Origin: an uncultured Methanosarcinales archaeon
Lineage (GTDB): Archaea > Nanobdellota > Nanobdellia > Woesearchaeales > JABIAG01
Reading direction: 5' to 3'
Length of the DNA: 42,143 nucleotides
Assembly (NCBI GenBank): GCA_964427985.1
Contig: CAYRWJ010000003.1
Span: 753-42,895 of the forward strand
Made by a program: the position numbers and the translations under genes. Numbering within the stretch: the first letter of the stretch is position 1; each line of letters starts with the position of its first letter. Under the pieces are notes generated by a model that saw only the letters and a list, made by a program, of their open reading frames with translations, searched no databases and was not told where the DNA came from. Below, piece by piece: positions 130-40,000 of this stretch.

Positions 130-1218
130 ATGAATCAAGAAGATATTATTACGTTTATTAGAAATAAGGGCCCTATTGTGCCTATGGACCTGGCAAATAA
201 TATGAAAGTTGAGTCATATATTGCTTCTGCTCACTTATCTGATCTTTTATCAAAAAAGCTCATTAAAATTAGTAATTTAAAGATGGGTTCTTCTCCATTG
301 TATTTTCTTCCTGAGCAAAAAAAAATGTTAGAAGGATTTTCAGATTATTTGCACCAAAAGGACAAAATTGCATTTAATGAGTTAAAGGAAAGACTGGTTA
401 TCCGAGATTCTAAAATTCTTCCTTTGTTAAGAGTTTCATTGAGAAATATTAAAGATTTTGCAGTTCCATTAGAAGTGACTTACAAAAACAAAAAAGAAAT
501 TTTTTGGAAATTTTATTCTTTATCTAATGATGAAGCTAGTGATAATATTCGTAAATTATTATTACCTAAAAATGAAGTTAAGCCTGTTGAAGTTGAGAAA
601 GAGGTTAAACATATTGTTAATAAAGAAGTTGAAAAAGAGGAAGTAAAAGAGGAAGTAAAAGAGGAAGTAAAAGAAGAAAAGAAACCGGAAGTAATTAAAG
701 AAGAAGTAAAAGAGGAAGTTAAAGAGTTAAAAGAAATAAAGGAAAAACCAAAACCAATTAAACAAGAGGTTAAACCTATTGTTAATAAAGAAGTTAAAAA
801 AGAGGTTAAACCAAAAGTTATTGATGTTGAAAAAACAGAAAAAAAGGTTATAGTAAAAAAACACAAAAAAGATATTCAAAAACATTTTGAGAAAAAGATT
901 GATTCCTCTGATAAATTTCTTAAACAAGTGAATGATTATTTTGTTGGTATTAACTCCAAGATTATTACTTATGAAATCATTAAAAAAGATTCTGAAATTG
1001 ATTTAGAGGTTGAAATTTCTAGCAGTATTGGAACTTTAATTTATTTTTGTAAAGCTAAGAATAAAAAACGTTTAAATGATTCTGATCTTCATGCTACTTA
1101 TGTTGGTGGTGAATTAAAAAAATTACCTTCAATTTTATTAACATCAGGTAATTTAACAAAAACTTCACAAGAAAAGTTATCTAAAGACTTTCGTAATATT
1201 ATTTTTCTTCAACTTTAA
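130..1218 (+). CDS. Hypothetical protein: N-terminal winged-helix-like region, long E/K/V-rich repeat linker, C-terminal Mrr/PD-(D/E)xK-like domain (function uncertain)
   Basis: 362-aa ATG ORF. TATA-like ATATATATAAAT at 97-108 lies about 27 nt upstream. N-terminus looks like tandem wHTH. The middle is EEVK-type low complexity. The C-terminus has EIDLEVEI...YFCKAKNKK followed by LLTSGNLT, resembling an Mrr-type nuclease core (by eye only). Confidence 0.55.
   Translation: MNQEDIITFIRNKGPIVPMDLANNMKVESYIASAHLSDLLSKKLIKISNLKMGSSPLYFLPEQKKMLEGFSDYLHQKDKIAFNELKERLVIRDSKILPLLRVSLRNIKDFAVPLEVTYKNKKEIFWKFYSLSNDEASDNIRKLLLPKNEVKPVEVEKEVKHIVNKEVEKEEVKEEVKEEVKEEKKPEVIKEEVKEEVKELKEIKEKPKPIKQEVKPIVNKEVKKEVKPKVIDVEKTEKKVIVKKHKKDIQKHFEKKIDSSDKFLKQVNDYFVGINSKIITYEIIKKDSEIDLEVEISSSIGTLIYFCKAKNKKRLNDSDLHATYVGGELKKLPSILLTSGNLTKTSQEKLSKDFRNIIFLQL
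637..672 (+). repeat. Three perfect tandem copies of the 12-nt unit GAGGAAGTAAAA (encodes EEVK x3) inside the 130-1218 CDS
   Basis: Read directly from the sequence; flanked by degenerate copies. Confidence 0.9.
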
Positions 1219-12791: not shown

Positions 12792-12802
12792 TTTGTTTTA
12801 CC

Positions 12803-13693: not shown

Positions 13694-13764
13694 TTATTTT
13701 TCCTCTTTAAGGTATTTAAACTTTTCTATAAGTTTAAGCTCAGAGCGTAATACAATTCGCTTTT

Positions 13765-14700: not shown

Positions 14701-14704
14701 TTTT

Positions 14705-16576: not shown

Positions 16577-16577
16577 A

Positions 16578-23946: not shown

Positions 23947-24465
23947 TTAACTATTTTTAGTTGCAGTTTTCTTAATCTTTTCTTTTGCATCTGATGTTTC
24001 TTTCTCCTTTTTTGGAGTATCAGATTCCTGAGGCTCAGAAACCTTTTTTTCCGTTTCAGAATCTTTTGCTTTTGTAATTTCTGCTTTTACTTTGGTTTCT
24101 AACCCAGATTCTTTTACTGGTGTTTCTTTTTTTGAATATTTTTCTTTTTTAACTTTCTGTTGTGCTTCTTTTTCTTCTGCAGTTTTTCCTTTTCTAATTT
24201 TTCTTGGTCTTTCTCCTGCTTTTTTTGGTTTTGTTTCCCAAACATCTAATTTTAATTTCTTAAATGCGGTTATAACGTCTGAATGTGAAGCTTTGTTCTT
24301 TATGTCAACTGTTTCTTTTAAGGGAATTAGATGAATTTTATTACATTTTCTTCTTCTTACATTTCCATCTATTGTTACAAAGTTTTTGTCTAGAATTTCT
24401 ACTATTACACATTTTCTGCCTGCATCTCTGCCTGCTAATTTAACACATAATTGTCCTTGTTTCAT
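23947..24465 (-). CDS. rpl14e: Ribosomal protein eL14 with a long K/E-rich C-terminal extension
   Basis: 172 aa. KOW-type N-terminus GQLCVKLAGRDAGRKCVIVEILD. The C-terminal half is K/E/T-rich. Confidence 0.87.
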   Translation of the reverse strand: MKQGQLCVKLAGRDAGRKCVIVEILDKNFVTIDGNVRRRKCNKIHLIPLKETVDIKNKASHSDVITAFKKLKLDVWETKPKKAGERPRKIRKGKTAEEKEAQQKVKKEKYSKKETPVKESGLETKVKAEITKAKDSETEKKVSEPQESDTPKKEKETSDAKEKIKKTATKNS

Positions 24466-24508
24466 TTTTGTTTCTCCTGTTTCAGTTTTTTTTATTACAA
24501 TAGTTGCC

Positions 24509-24775
24509 TTATTGTTCTGAAACTGTTGCTTTAATTTTTGCTCTCATACATTTACTGCATAAGTTTCCACCATATGGTCTTTCTGGTCGTTTTTCAGTTT
24601 TTGCTAACTTTTTTATTTTTGAAGGTATATCTCTTGGAACGCCCATTAGTTTAGCTCCGCAAACACATTTTGCTGCTTTTGGTTTTCTTCTTTTATAATG
24701 TATAACCGTCTTTCCACCTGGTGTTTTTACAAATATTCTTCTCAGGCGCCTTGACTTCTTTTTTCCTTCAACCAT
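24509..24775 (-). CDS. rpl34e: Ribosomal protein eL34
   Basis: 88 aa. [35 protein letters not shown] and CSKC zinc-ribbon. TATA TTTATAAA (24798-24805) is 26 nt upstream on the minus strand. Confidence 0.92.
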
Positions 24776-24923
24776 GGTTAATGGAACTCAGAAACTATTT
24801 ATAAAGCTTTCGAACAAAGTGAGAAAGGTTTATGCTTTGAACTGAACAAAATAAAGGGATATAAAGAGGATATCTTTCTTTAGAATAAATATTTTTAAAA
24901 ACTCTTGGCAATTTCTTAATTAA

Positions 24924-25529
24924 ATGCGTTGTAGACTTCAAGAAAAAAGTTATGATCAATTAAGTATTGCTATTGAAACTGCGTTAAGAGCTAAGTTCCC
25001 TCACAACAGGGGTTGGGGAGTGAAAGTTTTCCCAGTTATTGAGAGCAAGGAAGGTAACAGAAGTCAAAATATACTTATTTCTAATGATGGTCTGTATGTT
25101 TCACGTGCTGCTTCGTTTTATTGGAGTGTTGTTAAGGGTGAACAGCCAAATACTAAACGTGATGATTGTGATTGTTTTAATCGTTATTCTTTTAAATTAG
25201 TTCGAGGTTATATTGCTGGTTCTAAACCTGGCATGGTTAAAAAAAGAGCTAAGTCTGATAGAATTGAATTGGATGAACACGGCAAACCAATTATGATTGA
25301 AGGCAATGTGAGTATGTCTGATTCAGAAGTTAGTACTCGGTTTGAAGCAGTACGTTCAAGTTTAATAGAACTCGTTCCTGAGTTAGAGCAGGTTTTAAAT
25401 CAGCATGTTGAGTGTTCTTTTAATCCTAGAAATGAAAAGCCAGTTAGTCCTAACTATGTTCCTGCTAGGCCAGTTCCATTTAAAGGTAGGTTACTTAGAC
25501 AGCCATTTTTATGGGCGAATTATCTGTAA
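24924..25529 (+). CDS. Orphan hypothetical protein
   Basis: 201-aa ATG ORF on the opposite strand to its neighbours. No motif recognised. GC visibly higher than the local average for non-conserved genes. Confidence 0.6.
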   Translation: MRCRLQEKSYDQLSIAIETALRAKFPHNRGWGVKVFPVIESKEGNRSQNILISNDGLYVSRAASFYWSVVKGEQPNTKRDDCDCFNRYSFKLVRGYIAGSKPGMVKKRAKSDRIELDEHGKPIMIEGNVSMSDSEVSTRFEAVRSSLIELVPELEQVLNQHVECSFNPRNEKPVSPNYVPARPVPFKGRLLRQPFLWANYL

Positions 25530-25545
25530 ACAATATAGAATTGTG

Positions 25546-26322
25546 TTAGGCTAGTTTAAACAATTTTCTTAATGCTAAACTAAATACTAATGATGCTAAT
25601 ATATATGTTCCTAACCATCCTGGTTTCCATCCAAATAGTTTTATGTCTCCAAGTGGTTTTATTGGTTTGTTGTCAATTTTAATTGATTTAACTAAATCAT
25701 CTTTTAATAATTTGTCTGCAGGTTCATATTCGTTTTCTGTTGTTATTAAAACACTTTTATCATATACTTTGTCAGCGATTTTGTATTCTAACAAATACTT
25801 CCCGGCGGGGCCATTTAATTTCCAACTTACTATGTTTGAATTTACTTTTTGGGTTGCATCAGATAATATTTCAATTTCTTCTGGTGTTATTATGGTTATT
25901 TCTTGTCCAAATCCTTCTTTTAATTCTAAAGTTGTGGAAAAGTCTTCTCCTGGCATTATTGGATAATATGCTAAGTTTGCAGCTAGCCAAGAAAATATGA
26001 TTATGATTGGGATGAATGTTATAATTGTTGGTTTAAAGCTTTGGGTCATGTATTTCATGTTTGTTTCCATTGCTTGTTTTTGTACTTTCATCATTGCTTT
26101 TGGATCTTGTCTTAATGTTTTCATCTCTTTTTGTAATTCTTTTAATTCAGTTTTTAAGCGATGCATTAAACTTTGGTCTGTTGCCCATTTATAGACTAGG
26201 GTCATTACTAATGCTATTATAAAAGAAATTATTATTATTGCCCAGAATGGATTCAATTTAAGTAAGGGATTTAATACAGGGTCTAATATAAAATTTAGTG
26301 CGTTTCCTAATGATTGTAACAT
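25546..26322 (-). CDS. DUF106 / EMC3-TMCO1-YidC-like membrane insertase homolog with an enlarged extracytoplasmic loop
   Basis: 258 aa. TM1, then amphipathic coiled coil (KTELKELQKEMKTLRQDPKAMMKVQKQAMETNMKYM), then TM2 and TM3. Conserved archaeal position downstream of secY. TATA at about 26343-26354. Confidence 0.78.
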   Translation of the reverse strand: MLQSLGNALNFILDPVLNPLLKLNPFWAIIIISFIIALVMTLVYKWATDQSLMHRLKTELKELQKEMKTLRQDPKAMMKVQKQAMETNMKYMTQSFKPTIITFIPIIIIFSWLAANLAYYPIMPGEDFSTTLELKEGFGQEITIITPEEIEILSDATQKVNSNIVSWKLNGPAGKYLLEYKIADKVYDKSVLITTENEYEPADKLLKDDLVKSIKIDNKPIKPLGDIKLFGWKPGWLGTYILASLVFSLALRKLFKLA

Positions 26323-26384
26323 ATTTTAGAAAACACCAATCAGGTTTAAAAAGGTTTTTATTCAACAAGTTTGATTAGAACTAA

Positions 26385-27785
26385 TCATTCCATGAATTTT
26401 CGCATCATCGGATTCATGTCCATCATGTGTTGTTTTGCTATTTCTTCATATAATTTGTAAACAATCATAACGGTTAATAATAATCCTGTTCCAGAACTTA
26501 ATGCTCCTGATAAGTCAGCAAAAGCTGCTAAGAAACCAACTGTTAATGCTCCCATTATTGTTAATGGCCAAATGTATCTGTTTAATACTCTTTCAAGTAT
26601 TCTTTCATCTCTTCTAAATCCTGGTAGTTGTAATCCTGAACTCATCATTTGTTTTGCTTGAGAACGTGCGTCCATTCCTGAGGTTTGTACCCAGAATATT
26701 GAAAATAATACTGAACCTCCCATCATGATTAGTATATAAATTATAGAATTTGCTAATAATTTGCTGTTTATTGCACCAGTAATTAGTGCTCTAATTAAAT
26801 TTGGAGAATTTACCCATTCTATTAGTCCATGTCCTGATTGTGCTGTTCCAACTTGTCCTAATACAAATACGGATAACCATGTTATTATTCTTCCGCCTGA
26901 TGCTACTGCCATGTTTTGTGCTAGTCTTCCCCATAACTGAATGTTTGCTAATAATGCTGCCACTAATATTACTGGGATGTTTGATGTGTATATGAAACTT
27001 AATGGCCATCTTATTCCATGTCCTCTTACTCTTCCAAAAGAGAGAGGTATTTCAACTTTCATTGCTTGTGCATATACTGCGATTACAAATACTGCAAAGG
27101 TTGCTAATAATCCTGCAAACATGAGAGTTGCTGTTATTGGGTCTCCTGCTGAAACTGATTGAAATAGTGCGGGAATTGCTCCTGCTGCTATTTCTGGATT
27201 GTTTGGTGAGGGTAACCAAGATATTGCTCTCACTAGTATGGATTGCGATACTCCTGCGGCAATAAAAAGAGAGATTCCGGATCCAAATCCCCATTTACTG
27301 ACGACTTCATCCAAGAACATTATGAGTATTCCTCCGACGGCTAATTGAAATACTAACAGCCAGGGTGAAACGCCTTCTAGTGGGCTTAATCCTCCCATAA
27401 ATACGTATATTCCTGATTCAAATAATATGAAGAATAAAGATAGAATTTTTTGTATTCCTTGAAATCTTTTTTTACCTTCATCTGATGTTAAGTCAAATTT
27501 CCATATTCCTGAACCATTTAGTAATTGAAGTACTATTGATGCAGTTACTATTGGTCCGATTCCGAGAGAAATTATTGAGCCGAATTTTGCTCCTAAAATT
27601 ACTGATAAGATTTCAAATCGTTCTAGTGCATTTCCACCTAATCCATAAAGTGGTATTACTCCTAATATAAAAAATAAAACTAGAATTATTAGAGTCCATT
27701 TTAATTTTTCATTAAACCCTAATTTCTTTTGTGTTGGTCCTGCTACTTCTGGCAGGTTGGATGTTATCTTATCGAAAAAGCTCAT
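26385..27785 (-). CDS. secY: Preprotein translocase subunit SecY
   Basis: 466 aa, 10 TM pattern. KLKWTLIILVLFFILGVIPLYG, GIGPIVTASIVLQLL. Operon position after uL15. Confidence 0.96.
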   Translation of the reverse strand: MSFFDKITSNLPEVAGPTQKKLGFNEKLKWTLIILVLFFILGVIPLYGLGGNALERFEILSVILGAKFGSIISLGIGPIVTASIVLQLLNGSGIWKFDLTSDEGKKRFQGIQKILSLFFILFESGIYVFMGGLSPLEGVSPWLLVFQLAVGGILIMFLDEVVSKWGFGSGISLFIAAGVSQSILVRAISWLPSPNNPEIAAGAIPALFQSVSAGDPITATLMFAGLLATFAVFVIAVYAQAMKVEIPLSFGRVRGHGIRWPLSFIYTSNIPVILVAALLANIQLWGRLAQNMAVASGGRIITWLSVFVLGQVGTAQSGHGLIEWVNSPNLIRALITGAINSKLLANSIIYILIMMGGSVLFSIFWVQTSGMDARSQAKQMMSSGLQLPGFRRDERILERVLNRYIWPLTIMGALTVGFLAAFADLSGALSSGTGLLLTVMIVYKLYEEIAKQHMMDMNPMMRKFME

Positions 27786-28267
27786 TCTTCTTTTGATTCT
27801 TTTGAATTTGTTTGAGTTTCAGAAGTTTTTTTTTCTGTAATCTCAGGTTTAGTAGCTTCTTTTTTTTCTTTTTTTTCTTGAAAAATAACTTTCCCACCTG
27901 CTTTTTTAATTTTTTCTTCAGCTTTTTTAGTGCAGGTTTGAACCGTTATTTCAAACTTTTTGGTTATTTGTCCTGTTCCAATTATTTTTCCATATCCTTC
28001 TTTGGTTAAATCTACTTTTCCATCATATTTTTTATTTAAATCTCTCAAAGTTATTGCTTTAACTTTTTTATTATGTGAGAAAAATCCATATTTTCCAAAT
28101 TGTTTTAAATTTTTCCAAGTTGAAGGTTTTTTTGAGTCGGATCTTTTTCCACTTCCTGCGTTTCCTTTTCCTCCTCTACTTCCTTTTCCTCTATGCTTTT
28201 TTTTATGTCCCCATCCGTGGGTTTTATTTCCTCTTTCTCTTGAAAATTTATTTCTTTTGATTATCAT
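27782..28267 (-). CDS. rpl15: Ribosomal protein uL15 (K/E-rich C-terminal tail)
   Basis: 161 aa. THGWGHKKKHRGKGSRGGKGNAGSGKR. Conserved operon order. Confidence 0.93.
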   Translation of the reverse strand: MIIKRNKFSRERGNKTHGWGHKKKHRGKGSRGGKGNAGSGKRSDSKKPSTWKNLKQFGKYGFFSHNKKVKAITLRDLNKKYDGKVDLTKEGYGKIIGTGQITKKFEITVQTCTKKAEEKIKKAGGKVIFQEKKEKKEATKPEITEKKTSETQTNSKESKEE

Positions 28268-28662
28268 TATAACATCCTCTCAATTAGGTCGTTGATTTTT
28301 TCTTTTCTATCTCCTAATGCGCCACCAACACTGAAAGCTGTTTTGATTCCTTTTCTTCCAAACCCTTTTTTTGGTGAGTTTAGATTAAAATATCCTTTTT
28401 CTCCTCTTTTTTCTTTTAATTTTTTTATCATTTCATCAGTTACAGCACCCCAAGTTACATAATATCTTACTTTATTTAACATGCCTGCCATTGATTCAGT
28501 TTTATTTAGGACTACACAACAATTTTTCTTTCTTAATTTTAACATGTAAAGTGTATCTTTGATTTCTTTGTTTACTTTTACCATTCCTCTAACTAGTATT
28601 ACTGCAACCTTTTCTTGAGTTTTAGGTTGTTCTACCTTTTCTTGTTTTTCTTCACTCTTCAT
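28267..28662 (-). CDS. rpl30: Ribosomal protein uL30
   Basis: 131 aa from ATG 28662 (the tracked start at 28692 is TTG). VAVILVRGMVKVNKEIKDTLYMLKLRK. Confidence 0.88.
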   Translation of the reverse strand: MKSEEKQEKVEQPKTQEKVAVILVRGMVKVNKEIKDTLYMLKLRKKNCCVVLNKTESMAGMLNKVRYYVTWGAVTDEMIKKLKEKRGEKGYFNLNSPKKGFGRKGIKTAFSVGGALGDRKEKINDLIERML

Positions 28663-29431
28663 TTTTTTTATTGATTGGTATTTTTCCGGCAATCATACCT
28701 ATTTTTTCGTTGTGTTCTGGTAATGTGTGTGTTTGTGATAATTTTTTTAATGCATTAAAACATGCTTTTAATAAATTTGTTCTACTTGATGTTTGTCCTC
28801 TTGATTTTGACCATACATCTACAATTCCTGCTTTTTCAAGAATTTTTGCAAGTTCTTTTTCTACTACTAATCCTGTTCCTTTTGGGGCAGGCATTAATTT
28901 TACAATTACACTTCCGCATTTTCCTTCTACAGCGAAGGGTATGGTGTGTGGTGTTTTACAATCACATTGCCAACTTCCACATCCTCTTTTGATTTTTATG
29001 ATACTAACTTTTGCATTTCTTGTTGCTTTTTCTCTTGCTGGAACGGTTTCTTTACTTTTTCCAAATGCCATTCCAATATATCCATCTTTGTTTCCTACTG
29101 CTGCAACTGTTGAAAATTTTGGTTTGTTTCCTTCTCTTGTTTTCTTTTGGGTTTGTCTAAAGGCTCTTCTTTGTCCGCCACCAAATTTTCCTTTTGATTG
29201 TCCTAATAATAGTAAGTCTACTTCTAAATCTGGAATTAACATTTCTACAATTTCTTTTTCATATATTTTTTGTCCTAAATCTAAAATTTCATCTATGTTA
29301 GTTATTTCTTTATTTTTTACTTTTTTTCCTAATTCTGTTCTAGGTTTCCAGCTTTCTAATTCTGGTGAAATTTGTTTTATTTTTTCTTCTTCGTTTTTTT
29401 CTACTTTTACTACTTCGGATTCTTCAGTCAT
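28652..29431 (-). CDS. rps5: Ribosomal protein uS5
   Basis: 259 aa. WKPRTELGKKV, dsRBD-like and S5 C-domain. Operon order. Confidence 0.94.
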   Translation of the reverse strand: MTEESEVVKVEKNEEEKIKQISPELESWKPRTELGKKVKNKEITNIDEILDLGQKIYEKEIVEMLIPDLEVDLLLLGQSKGKFGGGQRRAFRQTQKKTREGNKPKFSTVAAVGNKDGYIGMAFGKSKETVPAREKATRNAKVSIIKIKRGCGSWQCDCKTPHTIPFAVEGKCGSVIVKLMPAPKGTGLVVEKELAKILEKAGIVDVWSKSRGQTSSRTNLLKACFNALKKLSQTHTLPEHNEKIGMIAGKIPINKKNEE

Positions 29432-29919
29432 TTTATTTTTCCCTTGATTTCTTCTATTTTATTAGCAAAATCTTCAATGTGTTTTCCATTTAGTCTTTCT
29501 TCTGTTGGAAATATTTCTTTTGAGCATGGAACTTTTAAGCCAGCATCTACTGCGCCTTTTAATGCAGAGTATATTCTTGAACCTTTTATTGTTGTATTTA
29601 GGCCTGTGTCTAAAATTGCTTCTGTTATTCCTGCAGTTAATGCTTTTTTCCCAATTAAGTATCCTGTTAAATATGCAGCAGGTATGTTTTTTAATCCACC
29701 AGTCCATCCTAATACTTTTAATGCGGTTGAATCTATTCCAACTTTTACTTTATCTCCTTTGATATCAAATTCGATTAGTTGTGTGATTATTTTTGTATTG
29801 GTTTTTCTAATTAAAAGTCTTAATTTTTTGGAAGACAAAATTTTAATTCTTTTTTTATAATCAGTTTTGCCTTCTCTTCTTCTTCTATGTTTTACTGTAT
29901 GTATATTACTTTTGTTCAT
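29428..29919 (-). CDS. rpl18: Ribosomal protein uL18
   Basis: 163 aa. KHRRRREGKTDYKKR. ATGA-type overlap with neighbours. Confidence 0.94.
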   Translation of the reverse strand: MNKSNIHTVKHRRRREGKTDYKKRIKILSSKKLRLLIRKTNTKIITQLIEFDIKGDKVKVGIDSTALKVLGWTGGLKNIPAAYLTGYLIGKKALTAGITEAILDTGLNTTIKGSRIYSALKGAVDAGLKVPCSKEIFPTEERLNGKHIEDFANKIEEIKGKIK

Positions 29920-30355
29920 TTTTTAGTATCCCTTGTTCTTCTAGGTAAACTTTTATGTGTCTTACACTTCTGAAAAAGTTTCCTTTACTTTTTTTGTACA
30001 TCTCTCTGTATATTTTTGTATTAATTTTTTTATTTTCGTATAATCTTTTTAAAAGTGATCTTTGTTTTCTTATTTTGTTTATCCATGTTTTTTTTGTTTT
30101 TTCTCTTGCGTTAGCAGTTCCTTTTCTTGAACCATGTCCTTTTCTTAGACCTTTTCTTTTTTGTTTTAAAATTTTATTAGCTCTTGCTCTTGATACGCCT
30201 TTTTTTTGTTTTGTTTTGATTGCTTTTTTTCCAAGTAATAATTTAACATCATGTTTTGTTATTGCTTCTTTTATTTCGTCTAATCTAGTTGGATCTAGTT
30301 TAATTCTTTTTGGTGAGCATTTCATTATTTTAGCTGCTATCTTTTTTTGTATCAT
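29906..30355 (-). CDS. rpl19e: Ribosomal protein eL19
   Basis: 149 aa. QKKIAAKIMKCSPKRIKLDP, RKGHGSRKGT. Confidence 0.93.
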   Translation of the reverse strand: MIQKKIAAKIMKCSPKRIKLDPTRLDEIKEAITKHDVKLLLGKKAIKTKQKKGVSRARANKILKQKRKGLRKGHGSRKGTANAREKTKKTWINKIRKQRSLLKRLYENKKINTKIYREMYKKSKGNFFRSVRHIKVYLEEQGILKNEQK

Positions 30356-30356
30356 T

Positions 30357-30962
30357 TTATACGGCTCCCTTTTTGATTAAGGCTTTGTCTATTTCTTTTT
30401 TCTTAATCTCTTCTTGAGAGAGGACAGGTTTACTTTTATCTTCTGGTTTATTTTTTGTAACATCTGATTCTGTTTTTTTTGTATCTTCTTTTTGTTTTTC
30501 TTCTTTTTCTATTTTTGCTTTTTCTTTTTTCTTTTCTTCTTTTTGTTTTTCTTCTTCTTTTCTTTGTTTTTGTTTTTTTTTTTTCTTTTTTATAAATTGT
30601 TCAGTATAATTTGAAAGTTTAATTTTATCTTCTGTTGCTTTTTTGATAATTCCAATTTTTTTCTTGGTTCCTACTGTTGCACTAATTACTCCAATCATTC
30701 CTTCTTCTATTTTTTTTAAATCGGCAACATTACAAATCAAAACTTCTTTTAATCCTTCCCTATTTAATCCTCTAACCGATTTTGGTGATTTATATCCTAC
30801 TTTTACTAATTTACCTTTTCCTTTTAATTGTAATCTTAATTTTGAGTCTATTCCTCTTGGTTTTCTCCAATTTTTTGCTAATCTTTTTTTCTTATGAGTG
30901 TCTTGTCTAATGAAATCTGGTTTTTTCTTTTTCATTTTATTTCTTATATCTAATTGTTTCAT
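30357..30962 (-). CDS. rpl32e: Ribosomal protein eL32 with a long K/E-rich C-terminal extension
   Basis: 201 aa. KKPDFIRQDTHKKKRLAKNWRKPRGIDSK core, followed by about 80 K/E-rich residues. Confidence 0.9.
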   Translation of the reverse strand: MKQLDIRNKMKKKKPDFIRQDTHKKKRLAKNWRKPRGIDSKLRLQLKGKGKLVKVGYKSPKSVRGLNREGLKEVLICNVADLKKIEEGMIGVISATVGTKKKIGIIKKATEDKIKLSNYTEQFIKKKKKKQKQRKEEEKQKEEKKKEKAKIEKEEKQKEDTKKTESDVTKNKPEDKSKPVLSQEEIKKKEIDKALIKKGAV

Positions 30963-31513
30963 TTGACTGGTACTCCTGCTTTTTCTATTATGTAAATTCC
31001 ATCCATGAATATTCTTCTATCAAATTTTGTTCTTTTTACCATTTTTTCTATATCCGCAGCTACTTGTCCTGCAAGTTCTTTATCAGGGGAGCTTATAGTT
31101 ATAATGTCACCATCAATTTTTATTTCTGTATTATCTTTGATTTTAAGTATTCTTGGTACTTTTTCTCCAATAAAGTTTGTTACTTCTATTTCTTGTCCTT
31201 TTAATGCAACTCCCATTGGAAAGTGAGATGAACAAATTTTTAGTTTGTATACATAGGGAGTATTTACTCCTTGTATCATGTTTTTTATGTGTGAGTTTAA
31301 TGTGTTGATTAATTTCTTTTCTGTTTTTGATGGTTTTTTTACATTTGGTTTAAGTATTACTTTTCCTTCTTTTATTTCTGCTGATAGTCTTTTAGTGGTA
31401 ATCTTTTTACTTATTTCTGCAGCCCCTTTTACAGTTACTATTCTTTCAGCTATCGTAATTGTTATTCCTTCAGGAATTAGTATTTCTTTTGTTAAGTTTT
31501 TTTTATTTTCCAT
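30959..31513 (-). CDS. rpl6: Ribosomal protein uL6
   Basis: 184 aa with the two-domain L6 pattern. Operon order. Confidence 0.92.
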   Translation of the reverse strand: MENKKNLTKEILIPEGITITIAERIVTVKGAAEISKKITTKRLSAEIKEGKVILKPNVKKPSKTEKKLINTLNSHIKNMIQGVNTPYVYKLKICSSHFPMGVALKGQEIEVTNFIGEKVPRILKIKDNTEIKIDGDIITISSPDKELAGQVAADIEKMVKRTKFDRRIFMDGIYIIEKAGVPVK

Positions 31514-31514
31514 T

Positions 31515-31904
31515 TTAATAACAATAAGCTAATAGTTTTCCTCCAATTTTCTTTTTTCGTGCTTCATCATTTGTCATGATTCCTTGTGATGTTGATATTA
31601 TTAACATTCCAAAATCTTTTGCAGGCAAAAATCTTTTTTCAAATTTTTCCATTTCTTCAATTTTTATTGCATATCTTGGTTTTATTGCTCCGCATTTGTT
31701 TATTTTTCCAATTAAGTTTATTATTAGTTTTGTTCCGCCAATTTCTTTTTTCTTTTCAAAAGTACCTATGTATCCTTTTTTATTTATTATTTCTAGTGAT
31801 GTTTCTATTATTTTCGAGGTTGGTTTTGCCTCTACTGTTGACTTTCCTATTTTTTCCGCGTTTAGTATTGCGGATAATGTATCTGCTAGTGTATCATTTA
31901 ACAT
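31515..31904 (-). CDS. rps8: Ribosomal protein uS8
   Basis: 129 aa. LNDTLADTLSAILNAEKIGK. Confidence 0.94.
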   Translation of the reverse strand: MLNDTLADTLSAILNAEKIGKSTVEAKPTSKIIETSLEIINKKGYIGTFEKKKEIGGTKLIINLIGKINKCGAIKPRYAIKIEEMEKFEKRFLPAKDFGMLIISTSQGIMTNDEARKKKIGGKLLAYCY

Positions 31905-31913
31905 TTTTTTCCC

Positions 31914-32144
31914 TCAGCTATATTGTTTAAATCCAATTTCTTCAGCATGTTCTCTGAAACATTGTCTGCATAAATGTAATCCATATTTTGAAATGTGTGC
32001 TCTTGTTCTATTGCATCTTACACATTTTTTTAAGCCTATTCCGCAACTTCTTTCTTTTGGAGCATTATGTTTTATGTATTTTTTTAGTTTTGCCGGTTTT
32101 TTAACCAGTTGTTTGAATACTTTTTTATAATCTGTTGCAGTCAT
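31914..32144 (-). CDS. rps14: Ribosomal protein uS14 (zinc-ribbon type, extended N-terminus)
   Basis: 76 aa. [25 protein letters not shown]. Confidence 0.92.
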
Positions 32145-32656
32145 TCTTTTATCTCCATATTTACTTTGTATTGTTCTTGCATGAATTTAATTGCTTCATT
32201 TTTGTTTATTTTATGTTTTGGTGATACTTTTTTCTTTTGAACTTTTCTATATTTTATTCTATACCCTGGTCTTTGTAGGGTTATACAAACTTGAAGTCCC
32301 ATTGTTCCTATTTCGGGGGAATATTTTAATCCGGGTATGTCAATATATTCGCTTATTCCGAATGATATGCTTCCATTTTGATCAAAATTGTTATTTCCAA
32401 GTACAAAATCTTTTGCTTCTACCATTCTTTTTAGTACATCTTCTGCAGTTTTTTTACGTAAAGTGATTTTACATCCAATTGGTAATCCAGGTCTTAATCC
32501 CCATCCTGCAATTCTTTTTTGTGTTATGGTTTTAATTGGTGTTTTTTGTGTTATAGTTTGTAATAATTTTAAACCTTTTTCTAATTGGTCTTGGCTTTTT
32601 CCAGTCCCTATATTAAGGGTTACTTTTTCTACTTGTATTTTTTGCATGTGATTCAT
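32141..32656 (-). CDS. rpl5: Ribosomal protein uL5
   Basis: 171 aa. [19 protein letters not shown]. Operon order. Confidence 0.94.
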
Positions 32657-33342
32657 TTTATTTTAACATATATTTTGTCTTTTCCTACTACATATGCGTG
32701 TTTTTTGATTGTTTCAAATATTTCATTTTTTTCATTTTTGAATATAAGTTTATTTTTTTCTATATTTTCAACAGTTCCTGTGGTGCCTATATGTTTTCCT
32801 CCTGTTAGAAGAATTTTAGCTCCTTTTTCAAATTTGAAAGATTCTAATATTTTTTGTGTTGGTAATTCAATTGCGATAGATGAGTTAACTTTTGCGTCAG
32901 TTTTTTCAACTAAAATATTTCGTCCATCAAATAGATTTAGTTGGATTTTTTTCCCAACCATTGTTTTTCCTGTAATTTTGTTTAGTTTAATTTTGTTTTC
33001 TTTTTCATCAATTTCAATTATGTTTAATTTTCCTTTGTCATCTAATATTATTCTATAACTTTTTTTGATTTTTGGAAAACTTATTACATCCATTAATCCA
33101 ACCGCTTTTTTATGGTCTTTTGTTCTTCTGCCGTCGATTAATACTTCTCTATGATTTAAAATATCTCTGATTTCTTTTCTTGTTCTTCCAATTTTTAATA
33201 TGTTTCTTAGTGCTAAGACTAAAGGAAATCCGTATTCCATCGAGTGGCTTCCTGGATTTGGTTTTGCCACATATTTTTCTTCTTTTTTGTGGATTTTCCA
33301 GTTTTTGTTTGTTGCTATTCGTTTTAAGTGATTTTTTACCAT
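32653..33342 (-). CDS. rps4e: Ribosomal protein eS4
   Basis: 229 aa. HLKRIATNKNWKIHKKEEKYVAKPNPGSHS. Confidence 0.94.
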   Translation of the reverse strand: MVKNHLKRIATNKNWKIHKKEEKYVAKPNPGSHSMEYGFPLVLALRNILKIGRTRKEIRDILNHREVLIDGRRTKDHKKAVGLMDVISFPKIKKSYRIILDDKGKLNIIEIDEKENKIKLNKITGKTMVGKKIQLNLFDGRNILVEKTDAKVNSSIAIELPTQKILESFKFEKGAKILLTGGKHIGTTGTVENIEKNKLIFKNEKNEIFETIKKHAYVVGKDKIYVKIK

Positions 33343-33343
33343 T

Positions 33344-33853
33344 TTATTTTTCCTTTTTTTCTTCTTTTTTAACAGTTTTTGTTTCTGTTTTTTTCTCTTC
33401 TTCTTCTTCTTTTTTGATTTCTTTTTTAACTGTTTTTGTTTCTGTTTTTGTTGATTCTTTTTTTACAACTTTTTCTTCTTTATTTGTTCCTTTGATTCTT
33501 TTTTTATCTTCAAGATTTAATTCTGTAATCATTATGTTTGATGGTTCTAGTGGATATAATGCTTTACTTCCGTCTCTTTTTTTGAAGTCTAATCCTTGAA
33601 TGTAAATTTTTGTATGTTGAACACTTATTTTTTCAATAGTTCCAGTTTTGCCTTTATGTTTTCCACGCATTACTTTTACTTTGTCTCCTTTTTTTATTCC
33701 AATTGTTCTTTGTTTGTGTTGTTCTTTTAGTTCTTTGCTAAGATGTCCGCCTAAAAACTTCTTTTTGATATGAAGAGGAGCATTATGTCTATACTTTCTT
33801 TGTTTTCTTGGTTGTTTACTACTTTTCCAGGTTGTTGAAAATGCGGTTTTCAT
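33344..33853 (-). CDS. rpl24: Ribosomal protein uL24 with a K/E/T-rich C-terminal extension
   Basis: 169 aa from ATG 33853 (ATGA overlap with the uL14 stop). KQPRKQRKYRHNAPLH and KOW GDKVKVMRGKHKGKTG. Confidence 0.92.
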   Translation of the reverse strand: MKTAFSTTWKSSKQPRKQRKYRHNAPLHIKKKFLGGHLSKELKEQHKQRTIGIKKGDKVKVMRGKHKGKTGTIEKISVQHTKIYIQGLDFKKRDGSKALYPLEPSNIMITELNLEDKKRIKGTNKEEKVVKKESTKTETKTVKKEIKKEEEEEKKTETKTVKKEEKKEK

Positions 33854-34251
33854 ACTATTATCCTCGCTAATTTTGCTATTGCAGGCCATCTTTCACATAC
33901 TTCTTTTGCGATTGGTCCTTTGAACATTGTTCCTTTTGGATTTCCTTGATCATCTTTTAATATTACTACTGCATTATCTTCAAATTTGACTCTTGTGCCG
34001 TCTTTTCTTCGGAATTCTTTTCTTTGTCTTACAACTACTGCATTAAATACTTGTTTTCGCATATCTGGTCTTCCTTTTTTTACGGTTACTACTACCATAT
34101 CTGCAATTCCTGCAGCAGGAAGTCTCCCTTTTACTGTTTTTCCTCTTTTTACTCCAAAGATTTGAATTAATTTTGCTCCTGAGTTATCACAAGGTTCAAC
34201 TTTTGTTCCAACATTTAATCCTCTTGTAACTCTAGCGCTTATTGCTTTCAT
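33850..34251 (-). CDS. rpl14: Ribosomal protein uL14
   Basis: 133 aa. LNVGTKVEPCDNSGAKL. Confidence 0.96.
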   Translation of the reverse strand: MKAISARVTRGLNVGTKVEPCDNSGAKLIQIFGVKRGKTVKGRLPAAGIADMVVVTVKKGRPDMRKQVFNAVVVRQRKEFRRKDGTRVKFEDNAVVILKDDQGNPKGTMFKGPIAKEVCERWPAIAKLARIIV

Positions 34252-34703
34252 TCTTCAGTTACCTCTTCTTCGGGTTCTGTTTGAGTTTCAGGTTTTACTT
34301 CTTCTATTTTTTCTTCTTTCTTTTCACTCTTTGTTTTTCCTTCTTCTAGAGCTTCTTTTTTCTCTTCGTAATGTTTTTCTTTTCCTTGATTTTCAACAAT
34401 AACGTGATGTACTGTTTTTGATAAAGGTCTTGTTGCAAATACTTTTACTTTATCTCCTTCTTCTACTTTTATGCATTCGGGACTATGAACAACAATTCTT
34501 GTTTTTTTCTTGGTATATCTTTCATATTTTGGTATTTTTATTTTTCTTCCCCATTCTATTACAACTGAATTGTGCATTTTTGCTGAAACTACTGTTCCAA
34601 CGAATGATTTTTTATTTACATTAATCTTTCCATGGAATGGACATTTTTTATCTGTACATTCTTTTTTAGGTTCTTTTATTCCGAATATTTCTTTGTTTGT
34701 CAT
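34248..34703 (-). CDS. rps17: Ribosomal protein uS17 with an E/K-rich C-terminal extension
   Basis: 151 aa. CTDKKCPFHGKINVNKKSFVGTVVSAKM. Confidence 0.93.
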   Translation of the reverse strand: MTNKEIFGIKEPKKECTDKKCPFHGKINVNKKSFVGTVVSAKMHNSVVIEWGRKIKIPKYERYTKKKTRIVVHSPECIKVEEGDKVKVFATRPLSKTVHHVIVENQGKEKHYEEKKEALEEGKTKSEKKEEKIEEVKPETQTEPEEEVTEE

Positions 34704-34981
34704 TTTATTGATATCCTTTCTTCAGGTCTTTTTTCAAGGAGTTTGCCCTCTATTAAAAATGTTTGCCCTTTATTTTCAATTTCAAATGTGTTTTGTTTTT
34801 TTATCATTTTTTTTATTTCCCAGTTTTGGGTGCCCGAATCTTGATTCTGAGCCTTTTTTTTTGTTTTGAGTGTGATTGTGTTTTTTGTTTCATCAATGAT
34901 GATCCCATTGATGCCTTTGTTAAATGGGTTGCTGCTTTCAACAACCTTTGCCATTTTTCCTATGATTTCTTTTGTTATCAT
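34700..34981 (-). CDS. rnp1: RNase P protein component 1 (Rpp29/Pop4)
   Basis: 93 aa. IGKMAKVVESSNPFNKGINGIIIDETKNTITLKT. Canonical position between uL29/SUI1 and uS17. Confidence 0.85.
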   Translation of the reverse strand: MITKEIIGKMAKVVESSNPFNKGINGIIIDETKNTITLKTKKKAQNQDSGTQNWEIKKMIKKQNTFEIENKGQTFLIEGKLLEKRPEERISIK

Positions 34982-35313
34982 CGAGTTTTTGGTTTTTGTT
35001 TGAAAAGTTGAACTTCGATTGTTTCTGGTGAAAATCCGATTTTAATTAGTTCTTCTTTAACTTTTTGTTGATGATTTCCTTGTAACTCAATTTTTCCATC
35101 TTTTGCTGTGCCTCCACAGGCAAATTTGTTTTTGAGTTGTTTTGCAAGGTTTTTAAGGTCAATTTCTTTGTTATCTACGCCTTCAACAATGGTATATGGT
35201 TTTCCAAACTTTTTTTTAACCATACTTACAACAATTTTTTGTGTTTCTTTTGCTATGCTTTCACACATACAAAGTTCTTTTGGAAGTCCACACGTTGTGC
35301 ATATTTCACTCAT
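34978..35313 (-). CDS. sui1: Translation initiation factor aSUI1 (eIF1 homolog)
   Basis: 111 aa. N-terminal CTTCG..CMC zinc knuckle. YTIVEGVD, KFACGGTAKDGKIELQGNH. Confidence 0.9.
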   Translation of the reverse strand: MSEICTTCGLPKELCMCESIAKETQKIVVSMVKKKFGKPYTIVEGVDNKEIDLKNLAKQLKNKFACGGTAKDGKIELQGNHQQKVKEELIKIGFSPETIEVQLFKQKPKTR

Positions 35314-35525
35314 TGCTTTTCTATAACCTCATTTTCAAGTTTTCTTGAATTTGTAATTGTCATAATTTTTGCGATTGTTTTTTTTCTTTGTTTTAACATT
35401 CCTGGACTTTTTGGAGAAGTACCTGCTGAAATTTGTGCATAATCTTGCATTAATTCTTTTTTTAATTCTATTAATTTATTTTGTAAATCGTCATTACTTA
35501 ATTCTCTAAGTTCTTTTGCTTTCAT
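35310..35525 (-). CDS. rpl29: Ribosomal protein uL29
   Basis: 71 aa. MKAKELRELSNDDLQNKLIELKKEL. Confidence 0.92.
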   Translation of the reverse strand: MKAKELRELSNDDLQNKLIELKKELMQDYAQISAGTSPKSPGMLKQRKKTIAKIMTITNSRKLENEVIEKQ

Positions 35526-36244
35526 TCTTTTTTAGCCTCTTTCTTTTTTTTAGGCTTTTTATCTTTGTTTATTTTATTTTTTGTTTCTGTTTTTTTCTTT
35601 TCTTTTTCAGGCTCTTTTATATCTTCACTTTCTTCTATTGTTTCTAGTCTGTCTCGTAATTCAATTTTATCAGGTAGTTCAACATCTCCTGGCATAATTC
35701 TTACTTGGATTCCTACTGTTCCACTTTTTAAGTTTGCAACAGTGTATGCTTTTAATACGCCTGATTTTGCAATGTGTCCAGATTTTTTTAGGTAACCTTG
35801 ATAAAATCTCCATCTTTTTGCTCGTGAACTTGGAATTTTCCCTGAGATTAATATTTCTGTTCCTAATGCGCCAGCTTTGATTATTGCTTCTAATACTTTA
35901 TGACCTATTGATTTAAATCTTCCTGAACCAAATCGTTCTAATGTTGTTGCAATTCTTTCTGCAATTATTTTTGGGTCTAGGTCTGGTTGTGTTATTTCTT
36001 CAATTTCAATTTGTGGATTTTCAAGGTTAAATCGTTTTTTTAATTCAGTTGTTAATAATTTGATGTTTTCACCTTTTCTTCCAACTACCAATCCTGGTTT
36101 TGATGCTGTGATTAATATTTTTTCTCCTAGAGGAGTTTTCTTTAATTTTACATCTGATTGTCCTGCTTTTTTTAATACTTCATTTACATATTCTTTAATT
36201 AAGTATTCTTTCAGGTTTTCTGATACAAATTTTCGTTCAATCAT
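35522..36244 (-). CDS. rps3: Ribosomal protein uS3 (K/E-rich C-terminal tail)
   Basis: 240 aa with KH domain. LVVGRKGENIK. Operon order. Confidence 0.95.
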   Translation of the reverse strand: MIERKFVSENLKEYLIKEYVNEVLKKAGQSDVKLKKTPLGEKILITASKPGLVVGRKGENIKLLTTELKKRFNLENPQIEIEEITQPDLDPKIIAERIATTLERFGSGRFKSIGHKVLEAIIKAGALGTEILISGKIPSSRAKRWRFYQGYLKKSGHIAKSGVLKAYTVANLKSGTVGIQVRIMPGDVELPDKIELRDRLETIEESEDIKEPEKEKKKTETKNKINKDKKPKKKKEAKKE

Positions 36245-36873
36245 TTTTTAATTTCCTCTGGTTTTTCTTTAGGAGTTTCAGTTTTTTCTTCAATCTTTTT
36301 TTCGATTGGTGTTGTTTCTGTTTTTTTCTCTTCTTCTTTTTTGATTTCTTTTTCAACAGGTTCTTTTTCTGTTTTGTTCTCTGTTTCTGTTTTGATTTCT
36401 TTTTCAACAGGTTTTGTTGATTCTTTTTTTACAACTTTTTCTTCTTTTTTTTGTGTTACTTCTTCAACAATAATTTCAATATGAGTTGATTTTGTTTTTA
36501 GTCCTCTTCTTCTTCCATAATGGTAGCTTCTTGAACCTTGATTTGGAATTATAGTTTTTATGATTAAGTTATCTACATTTAATCCTTTTGTGTTTGCATT
36601 TGATTCTGCACTTTTTACTATTTTTAATATGAATGTTGCTGCTTTTATTGGATAATTTCCTGGACCAATCCCTTTTCTATGTCCTACACTTCTAATTTTT
36701 TTACAAGGAATTGCAATTTTCATTTCGATTACATCTTCTAATATTTTTTTAGCTCTTTTTACGGATTTTCCTTTAATAAAATTACTAATTTCTAAACTTG
36801 ATTTTTTTGATATTGGTAAACCTACTCCCACTGCGATGGCTTCCCTTTCTGTTAATTGTTTTGTTGTTTTCAT
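36241..36873 (-). CDS. rpl22: Ribosomal protein uL22 with a long K/E/T-rich C-terminal extension
   Basis: 210 aa. Core to about residue 145, then a repeat-containing tail (PVEKEIK twice). Confidence 0.92.
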   Translation of the reverse strand: MKTTKQLTEREAIAVGVGLPISKKSSLEISNFIKGKSVKRAKKILEDVIEMKIAIPCKKIRSVGHRKGIGPGNYPIKAATFILKIVKSAESNANTKGLNVDNLIIKTIIPNQGSRSYHYGRRRGLKTKSTHIEIIVEEVTQKKEEKVVKKESTKPVEKEIKTETENKTEKEPVEKEIKKEEEKKTETTPIEKKIEEKTETPKEKPEEIKK

Positions 36874-38270: not shown

Positions 38271-39071
38271 TTATATGAATAACTTTTCCTCACTAATTTT
38301 TTTAATTGAATTTTCACTAAATAATACTAATCTTCCTGCTTCTGCTCCTGGAGCTAACATTTTTGCATTAATTTCTTTTACTTTTGCAATTTCAACACCG
38401 GGAATATTTTTAACTTTTTCAATGTCACATTCTTCTGATATTATGATTAAAGGTCCTGTTTTTGTTTTATATTTTCTTCCTCTCATAGTTCCTTTTCCTG
38501 CTCTAATTTTCTTTTCTTTTACTCGGTCTAATTCTTTTGTAAATCCAAGAGCTTTTAATATTTTGATTAATTCAGATGTTTTTTTAACCTTTTCAATTTC
38601 GTTTTCTACTATGAATGGATAATCTTTTGGTACTTGATGTTTTGTTGCTACCACGTCTTTCATTAGTGTTGCGGATAGTGCGCATCTGATTGCTTTTCTT
38701 CTTTCTTTTCTGTTAATATTTTTGATTATGATTTTTTCTGCTTTTGGAGAATGTGCTTTTCGTCCACCAACTGTTCCTGGGGCAGTTGCTCCAACCCAAT
38801 TAAATCTTGTTCCTCTGCTTGACATTACTTTTCTTGGAACTCTTGATATTCCTATTCCGTAAGCTCCTCTGTAATTGTGTCGTCTTCTTGATACTTTGGA
38901 TGAAGATCTCATACCTGCATCTGGTTTTGAACCATATGGTTGGATAGTTTTTGAGTTTACTGCAATAAACGCTCTTTTGATTAAGCTAGGTCGTAATTCT
39001 TCACTAAATTGTTTAGGTAGATCTATGCTTCCTGTATTTTCTCCCTTTAAATTTAATATGTTTAGTTTCAT
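38271..39071 (-). CDS. rpl4: Ribosomal protein uL4
   Basis: 266 aa. RRHNYRGAYGIGISRVPRK. Operon order. Confidence 0.95.
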   Translation of the reverse strand: MKLNILNLKGENTGSIDLPKQFSEELRPSLIKRAFIAVNSKTIQPYGSKPDAGMRSSSKVSRRRHNYRGAYGIGISRVPRKVMSSRGTRFNWVGATAPGTVGGRKAHSPKAEKIIIKNINRKERRKAIRCALSATLMKDVVATKHQVPKDYPFIVENEIEKVKKTSELIKILKALGFTKELDRVKEKKIRAGKGTMRGRKYKTKTGPLIIISEECDIEKVKNIPGVEIAKVKEINAKMLAPGAEAGRLVLFSENSIKKISEEKLFI

Positions 39072-40000
39072 AGTATCAACTTTTTAAGTTCAATTTTTGT
39101 ATTTGGTTTTTTCTTTGCTCTTATTGCGTTTGTTAATGTGATTGGTCTCTTTTTTGATCCTGCAACGCTTCCTTTTATTATAACAAAATTATTTTTGATT
39201 TTACCGTAATGTCTGAATCCTTTTTCAGGTAGTTTGTCTTCTACTTTTAGAAGTTGTTTATTGTATTCGGTTCTTTGATGGAATCCCATCTTACCTGGTT
39301 GTGCAACTCGATACATCATGTGTGCTTGTGAAGTCCAACCACCAGATCTTGCTCCAACACTTCTTTGTCCTTTTTCGGATTTATGTGATTTTAAGTTTAC
39401 TCCAAATCTTTTAATTACTCCTTGAAAACCTTTTCCTTTTGTTACGGCATGTAGGTCAATAAATGTATTTTCTTCAAATACGTCTTTTATATTGATGTCT
39501 TTTTCTAAATTTTCTTTTACCCAGGTTAATTGTTCTTCTTTACTTCCACCTAATGCTAATTCAAATACGTCTGGAACTTTCTTTCCTAAGCTTGTTAAGT
39601 TTGGTTGAGTATATGCAAGAATTCTTATTTGGGTATATGGATCTTTCATATCATCTATTTTTTTAGAATAATCTTTTGGTAATTGTAATCTTTTTTTTAA
39701 ATTTTGATCGAGTTTTGGTGAAAGAATTTCGGTTTGAATTGAATTTTTTTGGTAGAAACGCACAGAAAGAATTTTTATTGGTGGACATTCAATCAAAGTA
39801 ACTGGGATTGCATGTTTAAATGTCAGTTTGCCTTTTTGTTCAGAACCCATCATATGAGCCATTCCAATTTTATACCCGACAAATCCTAATGGTTTTACTT
39901 GTTTTCCACTCCAATTTCTAACTCTAGTTAAAAGTTTCTTAGCCCGTTTTCTTGGCCAAAATTGCATACTTCCATGCCTTGGGTTTGCTTTTTTTACCAT
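39068..40000 (-). CDS. rpl3: Ribosomal protein uL3
   Basis: 310 aa. NPRHGSMQFWPRKRA, FQGVIKRFG. Confidence 0.96.
   Translation of the reverse strand: MVKKANPRHGSMQFWPRKRAKKLLTRVRNWSGKQVKPLGFVGYKIGMAHMMGSEQKGKLTFKHAIPVTLIECPPIKILSVRFYQKNSIQTEILSPKLDQNLKKRLQLPKDYSKKIDDMKDPYTQIRILAYTQPNLTSLGKKVPDVFELALGGSKEEQLTWVKENLEKDINIKDVFEENTFIDLHAVTKGKGFQGVIKRFGVNLKSHKSEKGQRSVGARSGGWTSQAHMMYRVAQPGKMGFHQRTEYNKQLLKVEDKLPEKGFRHYGKIKNNFVIIKGSVAGSKKRPITLTNAIRAKKKPNTKIELKKLIL

Follow-up and report, generated by a model that had tools for sequence, protein, structure and literature searches.

In eukaryotes, the ribosomal proteins uL22 (L17), uL24 (L26), eL14, uS3, eS6, and uL4 carry C-terminal extensions that are ordered and contact expansion segments of the ribosomal RNA (rRNA). 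In prokaryotes, low-complexity regions are common in ribosomal proteins, and a survey that drew on 102 archaeal proteomes in UniProt (2017 release) found frequent carriers in S3, S24e, L10, L12, and FtsY (PMC6821194, Ntountoumi et al. 2019). Mostly disordered ribosomal protein extensions also occur across bacteria, and in Mycoplasma pneumoniae they are present on 11 of the 52 ribosomal proteins, where their disruption affects fitness (PMC9534751, Xue et al. 2022). Here we analyze a 42,143-nucleotide stretch of archaeal DNA (contig CAYRWJ010000003.1 of assembly GCA_964427985.1; hereafter the window) that contains the main archaeal ribosomal protein operon on its minus strand, and in which seven ribosomal proteins (eL14, uL15, eL32, uL24, uS17, uS3, and uL22) end in long tails rich in lysine (K) and glutamate (E). 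Judging from the genes, these tails are genuine parts of the translated proteins, appended at the C-terminus, and they are characteristic of a DPANN lineage. They are a variant of the known low-complexity ribosomal protein extensions: the segments are appended to the protein, biased in composition, and repetitive, and disorder is predicted for the uL22 tail, with eL32 as the exception, predicted to be helical.

The window has a guanine-plus-cytosine (GC) content of ~30% and comes from a genome of 794 kb in 45 contigs that is 79.7% complete. We treat the organism as what it probably is, a DPANN archaeon of a Woesearchaeota-like order with a very small genome, whose likely source is a salt-lake metagenome. 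The order comprises at least 37 families with genomes of 0.6-2.1 Mb.

Charged tails beyond the conserved cores

Pfam detects a conserved core in each of the named ribosomal proteins, and we set the end of each core by aligning the proteins with chains from solved archaeal ribosomes, among them those of Pyrococcus, Thermococcus, and Sulfolobus. All seven proteins overrun their solved homologues, by ~94 amino acids (aa) in eL14, 80 in eL32, 70 in uL22, 41 in uL24, 38 in uS17, 30-35 in uS3, and 32 in uL15 (Table 1). For instance, solved eL32 chains (123-130 aa) stop at query residue 118, with the core ending at 118-121, and solved uL22 chains (150-156 aa) stop at query residue 140. For eL14, the Pfam KOW core spans residues 4-33 and solved chains of 81-96 aa align only to residues 3-73, with the end of the core at ~75-78. 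The Pyrococcus uL24 chain (121 aa) covers query residues 23-133 (core end ~140), solved uS17 chains (109-114 aa) cover residues 8-105 (core end ~113), and Thermococcus and Pyrococcus uS3 chains (209-210 aa) cover residues 2-204 (core end ~205-210). Lastly, the uL15 homologues of Thermococcus and Pyrococcus (147-148 aa) stop at query residue 128-129.

A sequence-only reading of the window had named these seven proteins, placed the eL14 tail in about the last half of the protein, put the eL32 and uL22 tails at ~80 and ~65 aa, and held such tails to be absent from known archaeal homologues. The lengths agree with the core ends from solved chains, and the absence holds for the model archaea with solved ribosomes. 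The same reading had pointed to an EEVK-type repeat in the unrelated protein encoded at 130-1218, and this repeat is present (Table 1). No Pfam family matched that protein.

We consider the tails to be part of their genes because every tail stop overlaps or abuts the start of the downstream gene, with 4-nt stop/start overlaps at uL22/uS3, uS3/uL29, uS17/uL14, and uL15/SecY. The tails are expected to be translated since the frames are continuous, the starts of the next genes fit, and a conserved motif at the end of eL32 stays in frame behind 55-80 variable codons in ~30 genomes. At the tails, assembly graphs do break and read depth spikes. Four metagenome runs from salt lakes show a 3- to 6-fold higher contig depth in exactly the tail bins (33276-33509, 34212-34445, 35382-35615, and 36318-36551), where contigs also break, a pattern consistent with cross-mapping of many similar K/E-coding cassettes in the community. 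We nevertheless give almost no credence to the idea that the tails are an artefact of assembly errors in low-complexity DNA or of stops missed through a wrong frame: independent contigs from the likely source run are identical to the window across several tails, the same genes are tailed in dozens of independently assembled genomes, and the tail stops fit the neighbouring gene starts.

At the other end of the proteins, a few start codons deserve comment. The longest open reading frame (ORF) for uL24 begins 40 nt within uL14 (window 33851-33889) and includes a 19-residue N-terminal extra. This start was probably called too early: homologues align from residue 23, and a methionine at residue 13, which fits them, is the more probable start. 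Additionally, uS5 (28652-29431) and uL30 (28267-28692) have K/E-rich N-terminal stretches of ~30 and ~28 residues ahead of their Pfam domains; the start codons of both are uncertain, and the listed uL30 ORF opens with TTG inside uS5.

Table 1. Coordinates of the tails, repeat segment, and operon in the window, number of same-order relatives with each tail, and DNA cassettes shared between genes (length, identity, and bit score).
Feature	Position	Strand	Description	Relatives with tail
eL14 tail	23950..24231	-	residues 79-172 of gene 23947-24465 (172 aa)	14/15 (true orthologues only)
uL15 tail	27785..27880	-	residues 130-161 of gene 27782-28267 (161 aa)	9/34
eL32 arm	30360..30599	-	residues 122-201 of gene 30357-30962 (201 aa); predicted helix, loop, conserved end motif	37/37
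uL24 tail	33347..33469	-	residues 141-181 of gene 33344-33889 (181 aa)	6/38
uS17 tail	34251..34364	-	residues 114-151 of gene 34248-34703 (151 aa)	17/38
uS3 tail	35525..35629	-	residues 206-240 of gene 35522-36244 (240 aa)	30/35
uL22 tail	36244..36453	-	residues 141-210 of gene 36241-36873 (210 aa)	26/36
uL4 tail				8/34
EEVK-type K/E repeat	553..897	+	residues 142-256 of non-ribosomal protein 130-1218 (orf362)	
Operon span	39068-40000 (uL3) to 23947-24465 (eL14)	-	from uL3 via SecY and eL34 to eL14	
Shared cassette eS24-P0			128 bp, 81%; 123 bits	
Shared cassette uL22-uL24			139 bp, 75%; 101 bits	
Shared cassette eL31-eS19			89 bp, 83%; 98 bits	
Shared cassette eS19-orf362			105-111 bp, 77%; 83 bits	
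Shared cassette FtsY-eS19			80 bp, 84%; 81.5 bits	
Shared cassette eS19-uL16			113 bp, 77%; 80.6 bits	

Occurrence among relatives and across the genome

We took the operon from 38 genomes of the same order, aligned every protein, and counted a tail where it reached at least 20 aa (Table 1). The tails are confined to a fixed subset of ribosomal proteins: none was present in any of the 38 relatives on uL3, uL23, uS19, uL29, uL14, uL5, uS14, uS8, uL6, uL30, uL18, or eL34, nor on SecY. Three unpublished genomes, G004 (same order), G262, and G263 (phylum), are included in the tallies and not in the alignments, and their removal alters no conclusion. Four eL14 matches were false, being due to similarity of the eL14 tail to low-complexity tails of uL22 or eL32, and were dropped from the tally. 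Tail length can vary considerably; for example, the uS3 tail reaches up to ~90-100 aa in relatives. A long uL24 tail is found in two of the three sampled genomes of the genus (that of the window and G001), and the third, G002, has only 12 aa.

That the tails are a lineage habit, as had been suggested from the window, is seen in eL32. Every same-order relative has the tail, and among the matches listed from 251 genomes of the phylum ~97% of eL32 frames are at least 170 aa long, the exceptions including two single-contig genomes of 0.5-0.6 Mb. In another archaeal phylum, by comparison, eL32 frames are at most 177 aa in 42 of 51 genomes, and occasional tails are present there. One eL32 with an ~80-residue acidic tail of E, alanine (A), and K comes from a 2.4-Mb genome labelled Bathyarchaeota (G270; L055:1444-2097) and lacks the Woesearchaeota-type end motif. 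This tail probably arose independently, because most sampled genomes of its phylum have short eL32 frames.

The habit extends well beyond the window. At least 14 ribosomal proteins of the genome are tailed, seven in the window and seven elsewhere (uL16, eS24, eS6, eL31, eS19, uL11, and the stalk protein P0, all seven confirmed by Pfam), and the tails sum to ~900 extra residues for each ribosome. K and E together make up 47-67% of the seven tails in the window versus 18% (10.4% K, 7.7% E) of the predicted proteome, which consists of 918 genes from our own ORF calling. Stretches of 30 aa in which K+E account for at least 50% are confined to 66 of the 918 proteins. Such a stretch reaches the C-terminus in 24 proteins, 12 of which are ribosomal (13 of 25 counting eL32). 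With the ribosomal share of genes taken as an upper bound of ~65 proteins, or at most ~7%, ribosomal proteins are enriched among these C-terminal stretches with an odds ratio of ~17, far above chance. The longest extension in the genome belongs to uL11 (G000:C8:23573-24355), which continues for ~120 residues beyond its two Pfam domains (core end at residue 137 of 260) and is in part E/K-rich and in part rich in A, glycine (G), and E.

Three other small proteins of the genome have extreme tails. These are an 80-aa protein (G000:C41:2119-2361) that is K-, threonine (T)-, and A-rich over nearly its whole length, a cold-shock-like protein (G000:C23:8745-9083) with an acidic repeat tail of A, E, and serine (S), and a 112-aa cysteine-rich protein (G000:C5:32160-32498) that matches no Pfam family and ends in a K-rich tail.

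Composition, predicted structure, and growth of the tails

The 14 ribosomal tails have a charged fraction of 0.50-0.71 and a net charge per residue between -0.21 and +0.20; seven of the 14 are neutral or acidic, with the uS17 tail of the window at the acidic limit (-0.21 per residue). Compared with shuffled versions, the tails have their charges better mixed, and the share of hydrophobic residues is 2-31% in the tails versus 37.5% in the proteome. These are the values of expanded polyampholytes and not of basic RNA-binding arms. Despite the likely salt-lake origin, the tails do not have a large halophile-type acidic excess (aspartate plus E over K plus arginine), as K equals or exceeds E in most of them and makes up 10.4% of the proteome.

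RNA-binding arms, which would stand in for missing rRNA helices or offset the charge of the rRNA, could account for lysine being the commonest tail residue, and lysine-rich low-complexity regions have been proposed to bind nucleic acid (PMC6821194). However, half of the tails have a net charge near zero or below, the prediction for the uL22 tail is disorder, and the 23S rRNAs of G001 (2907 nt, same genus) and G020 (2912 nt) cover model positions 1-2987. In G001 and two other relatives, the 23S gives no hint that large parts of the rRNA were lost or gained (the 23S of the genome of the window is unassembled). We therefore regard RNA-binding arms as very improbable. The suggestion from the sequence-only reading that the tails are possible substitutes for rRNA expansions finds no support in the same evidence, given the full-length 23S of G001 and the narrow range of net charge.

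We made AlphaFold2 models for uL22 and eL32. The uL22 model (34 homologues) has a confident core and, from residue 139 onward, no secondary structure and a predicted local distance difference test (pLDDT) score of 50-72. The eL32 model is quite different, with a helix at residues 121-169 (49 residues, pLDDT 90-97), a loop at 170-182, and a second helix at 183-196. Alignment with relatives shows that the eL32 tail begins with a conserved stretch, continues with K/E-rich sequence that varies in its residues and is steady in length, and closes with the end motif EKKEKDKxLTKK, in which K188, E190, K193, and L195 are nearly invariant. Other orders of the class have a K/E eL32 tail of like length with different endings, one family having a conserved ending of its own. 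By these alignments, the EKKEKDKxLTKK motif is specific to the order and the tail itself is class-wide. We propose that the eL32 tail is a separate case from the other tails and would form a rigid, charged helical arm of ~49 residues, whose end peptide most likely docks on some partner.

If the tails were specific interaction modules that tether or recruit partners such as membranes, host-contact structures, chaperones, or translation factors, in the manner of eukaryotic extensions or the P-stalk, the long predicted helix of eL32 with its conserved end peptide would be in keeping. Two further observations point the same way. The uS17 tails of relatives often start with a conserved EKxYxxKKEALEEGK stretch, and P0 (G000:C16:15110-16243, 377 aa) is without the usual hydrophobic factor-binding end peptide and has a different ending, ...WKEKDKPKQTAQDIIKDADKA. 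The adjacent aP1 (G000:C16:14732-15046) retains ...GLGALFG. The KEKDK of P0 resembles the eL32 end motif, a likeness that may be due to chance in K/E-rich sequence. As an explanation for the tails in general, specific interaction is unlikely: apart from eL32, and to some extent uS17, the tails showed no conserved motif, interchangeable cassettes are common to unrelated proteins, and the eL32 end motif is missing from other orders of the class.

To describe how the tails arise, we ran Tandem Repeats Finder on the window and compared the genome with itself for shared DNA, using codon-shuffled controls. Tandem repeats are found in the tails of eL32, uL24, uS17, and uL22 and in protein 130-1218, with periods of 12, 15, 18, 24, 33, 36, 45, 51, 54, 57, and 63, all multiples of three except for a few weak rows. 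In eL32, for instance, repeats at 30473-30601 have periods of 15, 36, 51, and 54 and are in-frame. The uL24 tail has periods of 12, 33, 36, 45, and 57, the uL22 tail contains a 51-bp repeat (36315-36413; 1.9 copies, 91% identity), and protein 130-1218 has tandem repeats of period 12, 24, and 63 at 622-774.

The tails of different genes, which the sequence-only reading had taken to be independent, have DNA cassettes in common. The six best cassette pairs (Table 1) score 80-123 bits against a codon-shuffle maximum of 73 bits, and all six are in frame. At a threshold of 60 bits, 11 tail pairs were observed versus 0.26 expected from codon shuffles. Protein 130-1218 additionally shares 79 bp at 81% identity with the eL31 tail. 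In G001, the uL22 and uL24 tails have 130 bp at 87% identity in common, in frame, which exceeds any orthologous tail pair; the uL24 orthologues have only 41 bp in common. These DNA comparisons show tails growing by in-frame tandem duplication of purine-rich codons and by cassettes copied between genes. On the same comparisons, the tails of uL24 and uL22 are of related sequence, and a new tail can come from an old one. Given that the uL22/uL24 similarity in G001 is greater than that between orthologues and that G002 has almost no uL24 tail, we conclude that the uL24 tail is young, seeded from uL22, and still homogenising with it.

The base composition of the locus has little bearing on tail length. 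Summed tail length shows no correlation with locus GC over 25-63% (rho 0.16, p 0.37; the relatives are not statistically independent), and because length does not track GC, AT bias is not the reason the tails exist. Alanine (rho 0.69) and proline (rho 0.60) increase with GC, displacing part of the lysine and threonine. The character of the tails is kept despite fast sequence turnover, and only filler residues shift with GC.

Two unrelated features of the window were also noted. A perfect 43-bp tandem repeat (10441-10531; 2.1 copies, 100% identity) lies in the intergenic space between a gene that ends at 10414 and one that starts at 10881. On the minus strand, a run of five genes (11883-17789) encodes products with an N-terminal hydrophobic segment, and three of these products (~296-311 aa, 11883-14700) begin in the manner of lipoproteins (…LVGC, …ITAC).

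Selection, neutrality, and known systems

Based on these data, we propose that most tails are selected bristles, a reading to which we assign a probability of about 0.5. The bristles would be disordered, hydrated polyampholytes on the solvent side of the ribosome, likely without stable rRNA binding, and any function would come from their bulk properties, such as solubility, ribosome spacing, and weak transient contacts. Weak selection on composition could keep the tails at those C-termini that tolerate an appendage.

A number of points weigh against this proposal. That the tails sit only at solvent-pointing C-termini is something we infer from known ribosome structures. Turnover is high, the uL22, uS17, uL15, and uL24 tails being missing from many relatives. 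Compared with the same-genus G001, the pooled ratio of nonsynonymous to synonymous substitution rates (dN/dS) is 0.36 for tails and 0.12 for cores, and it is ~1 for the uL15 tail, although these ratios are rough, with dS near saturation and low-complexity alignment inflating identity. Both the turnover and the uL15 ratio fit weak or no selection on individual tails. Comparable segments in the N-terminus of FtsY, in Rpo7, and in protein 130-1218 mean that the feature is not specific to the ribosome. In addition, the helical arm of eL32 may be less secure than its pLDDT implies. AlphaFold2 is prone to over-predicting helices in K/E-rich sequence, and opposite-charge pairs at i,i+4 in the eL32 tail (fraction 0.22, z +0.9) are not clearly above shuffles.

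Much of this evidence would also be expected if the tails were a near-neutral by-product without function, in which slippage and ectopic recombination add purine-rich codons to harmless C-termini in a small-population, symbiont-like DPANN archaeon. The biased make-up would then merely reflect the purging of sticky hydrophobic variants. Sequence and length do turn over quickly and tails come and go, the pooled tail ratio is three times that of the cores with uL15 near 1, tandem duplication and inter-gene copying provide a steady supply of tail sequence, and non-ribosomal proteins have comparable segments. However, the tails persist over GC 25-63% with length unlinked to GC, the same proteins are tailed across an order of at least 37 families, the eL32 tail holds both its length and its end motif, and the pooled tail dN/dS is below 1. 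We hold the by-product explanation to be plausible and less probable than selected bristles.

The proposal of selected bristles can also be put in a much more specific form, which we consider doubtful. In this form, the tails would be a selected DPANN feature that combines a charge-balanced protein brush with a rigid eL32 arm bearing a docking peptide, altering ribosome packing, solubility, or attachment in tiny, crowded, host-dependent cells. It would use the same C-termini as eukaryotes (uL22, uL24, eL14, uS3, eS6, uL4) by convergence and would have spread by a cassette copying not described for ribosomal genes.

The overall interpretation first drawn from the window thus stands in part. The tails are real and belong to a lineage habit, but rRNA substitution, independent origin, and the exclusion of random drift are not supported, and the chaperone-like solubilisers and surface tethers that it also suggested are candidate roles. 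As to drift, the fast turnover, the coming and going of tails, and the dN/dS values all leave room for drift.

Ribosomal proteins are usually held to be among the most conserved, and here about one fifth of them carry fast-evolving appendages in otherwise stripped-down genomes. If the tails are functional, they would represent an unexplored way to tune the ribosome surface in the smallest known cells and a prokaryotic model for the possible beginnings of eukaryotic ribosomal protein extensions. If they are neutral, they would be a clean case of constructive neutral growth within genes that are both essential and highly expressed, together with concerted evolution of unrelated genes. In practical terms, the tails break assemblies, give false homology cross-matches (as with eL14), and can distort archaeal marker-protein alignments for phylogeny.

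How do the tails compare with described systems? The eL32 arm is closest to the ER/K single alpha-helix (SAH) domains, examples of which are found in myosin VI, myosin X, and caldesmon. Like these stiff spacers, it is predicted to run as one unbroken helix for 49 residues, with a high content of K, E, and glutamine (Q). Its i,i+4 salt-bridge pairs, however, show no clear enrichment relative to shuffles. A literature search that was thin on subscription journals found no SAH reported on an archaeal ribosomal protein, and no paper describing the DPANN tail habit.

The surveyed prokaryotic low-complexity regions are similar in being terminal, biased to E, K, and A, and located on abundant ribosomal proteins, and S3, S24e, L10, and FtsY are carriers in this genome as well. 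The survey does not, however, include tails on eL32, eL14, uL22, uL24, uS17, uL15, uL16, eS6, eS19, eL31, or uL11, nor a habit spread over ~14 proteins, cassette copying between genes, or the eL32 helical arm (PMC6821194). The extensions of M. pneumoniae differ in being bacterial, in being partly on other proteins, and in having been observed in cells on the ribosome itself, where insertions into them have an effect on fitness (PMC9534751).

Lastly, the eukaryotic extensions lengthen the same C-termini. The uL22 tail of the window (to residue 159-168) and its uL24 tail (to residue 156-158) align partly with eukaryotic extensions in PDB chains, which suggests that the same permissive positions are used, though the similarity may be only compositional. 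In contrast to eukaryotes, the 23S here is without expansion (2907 nt in G001 for 2987 model positions) and the tails are low-complexity. We conclude that the likeness to the eukaryotic extensions is likely the result of convergence.

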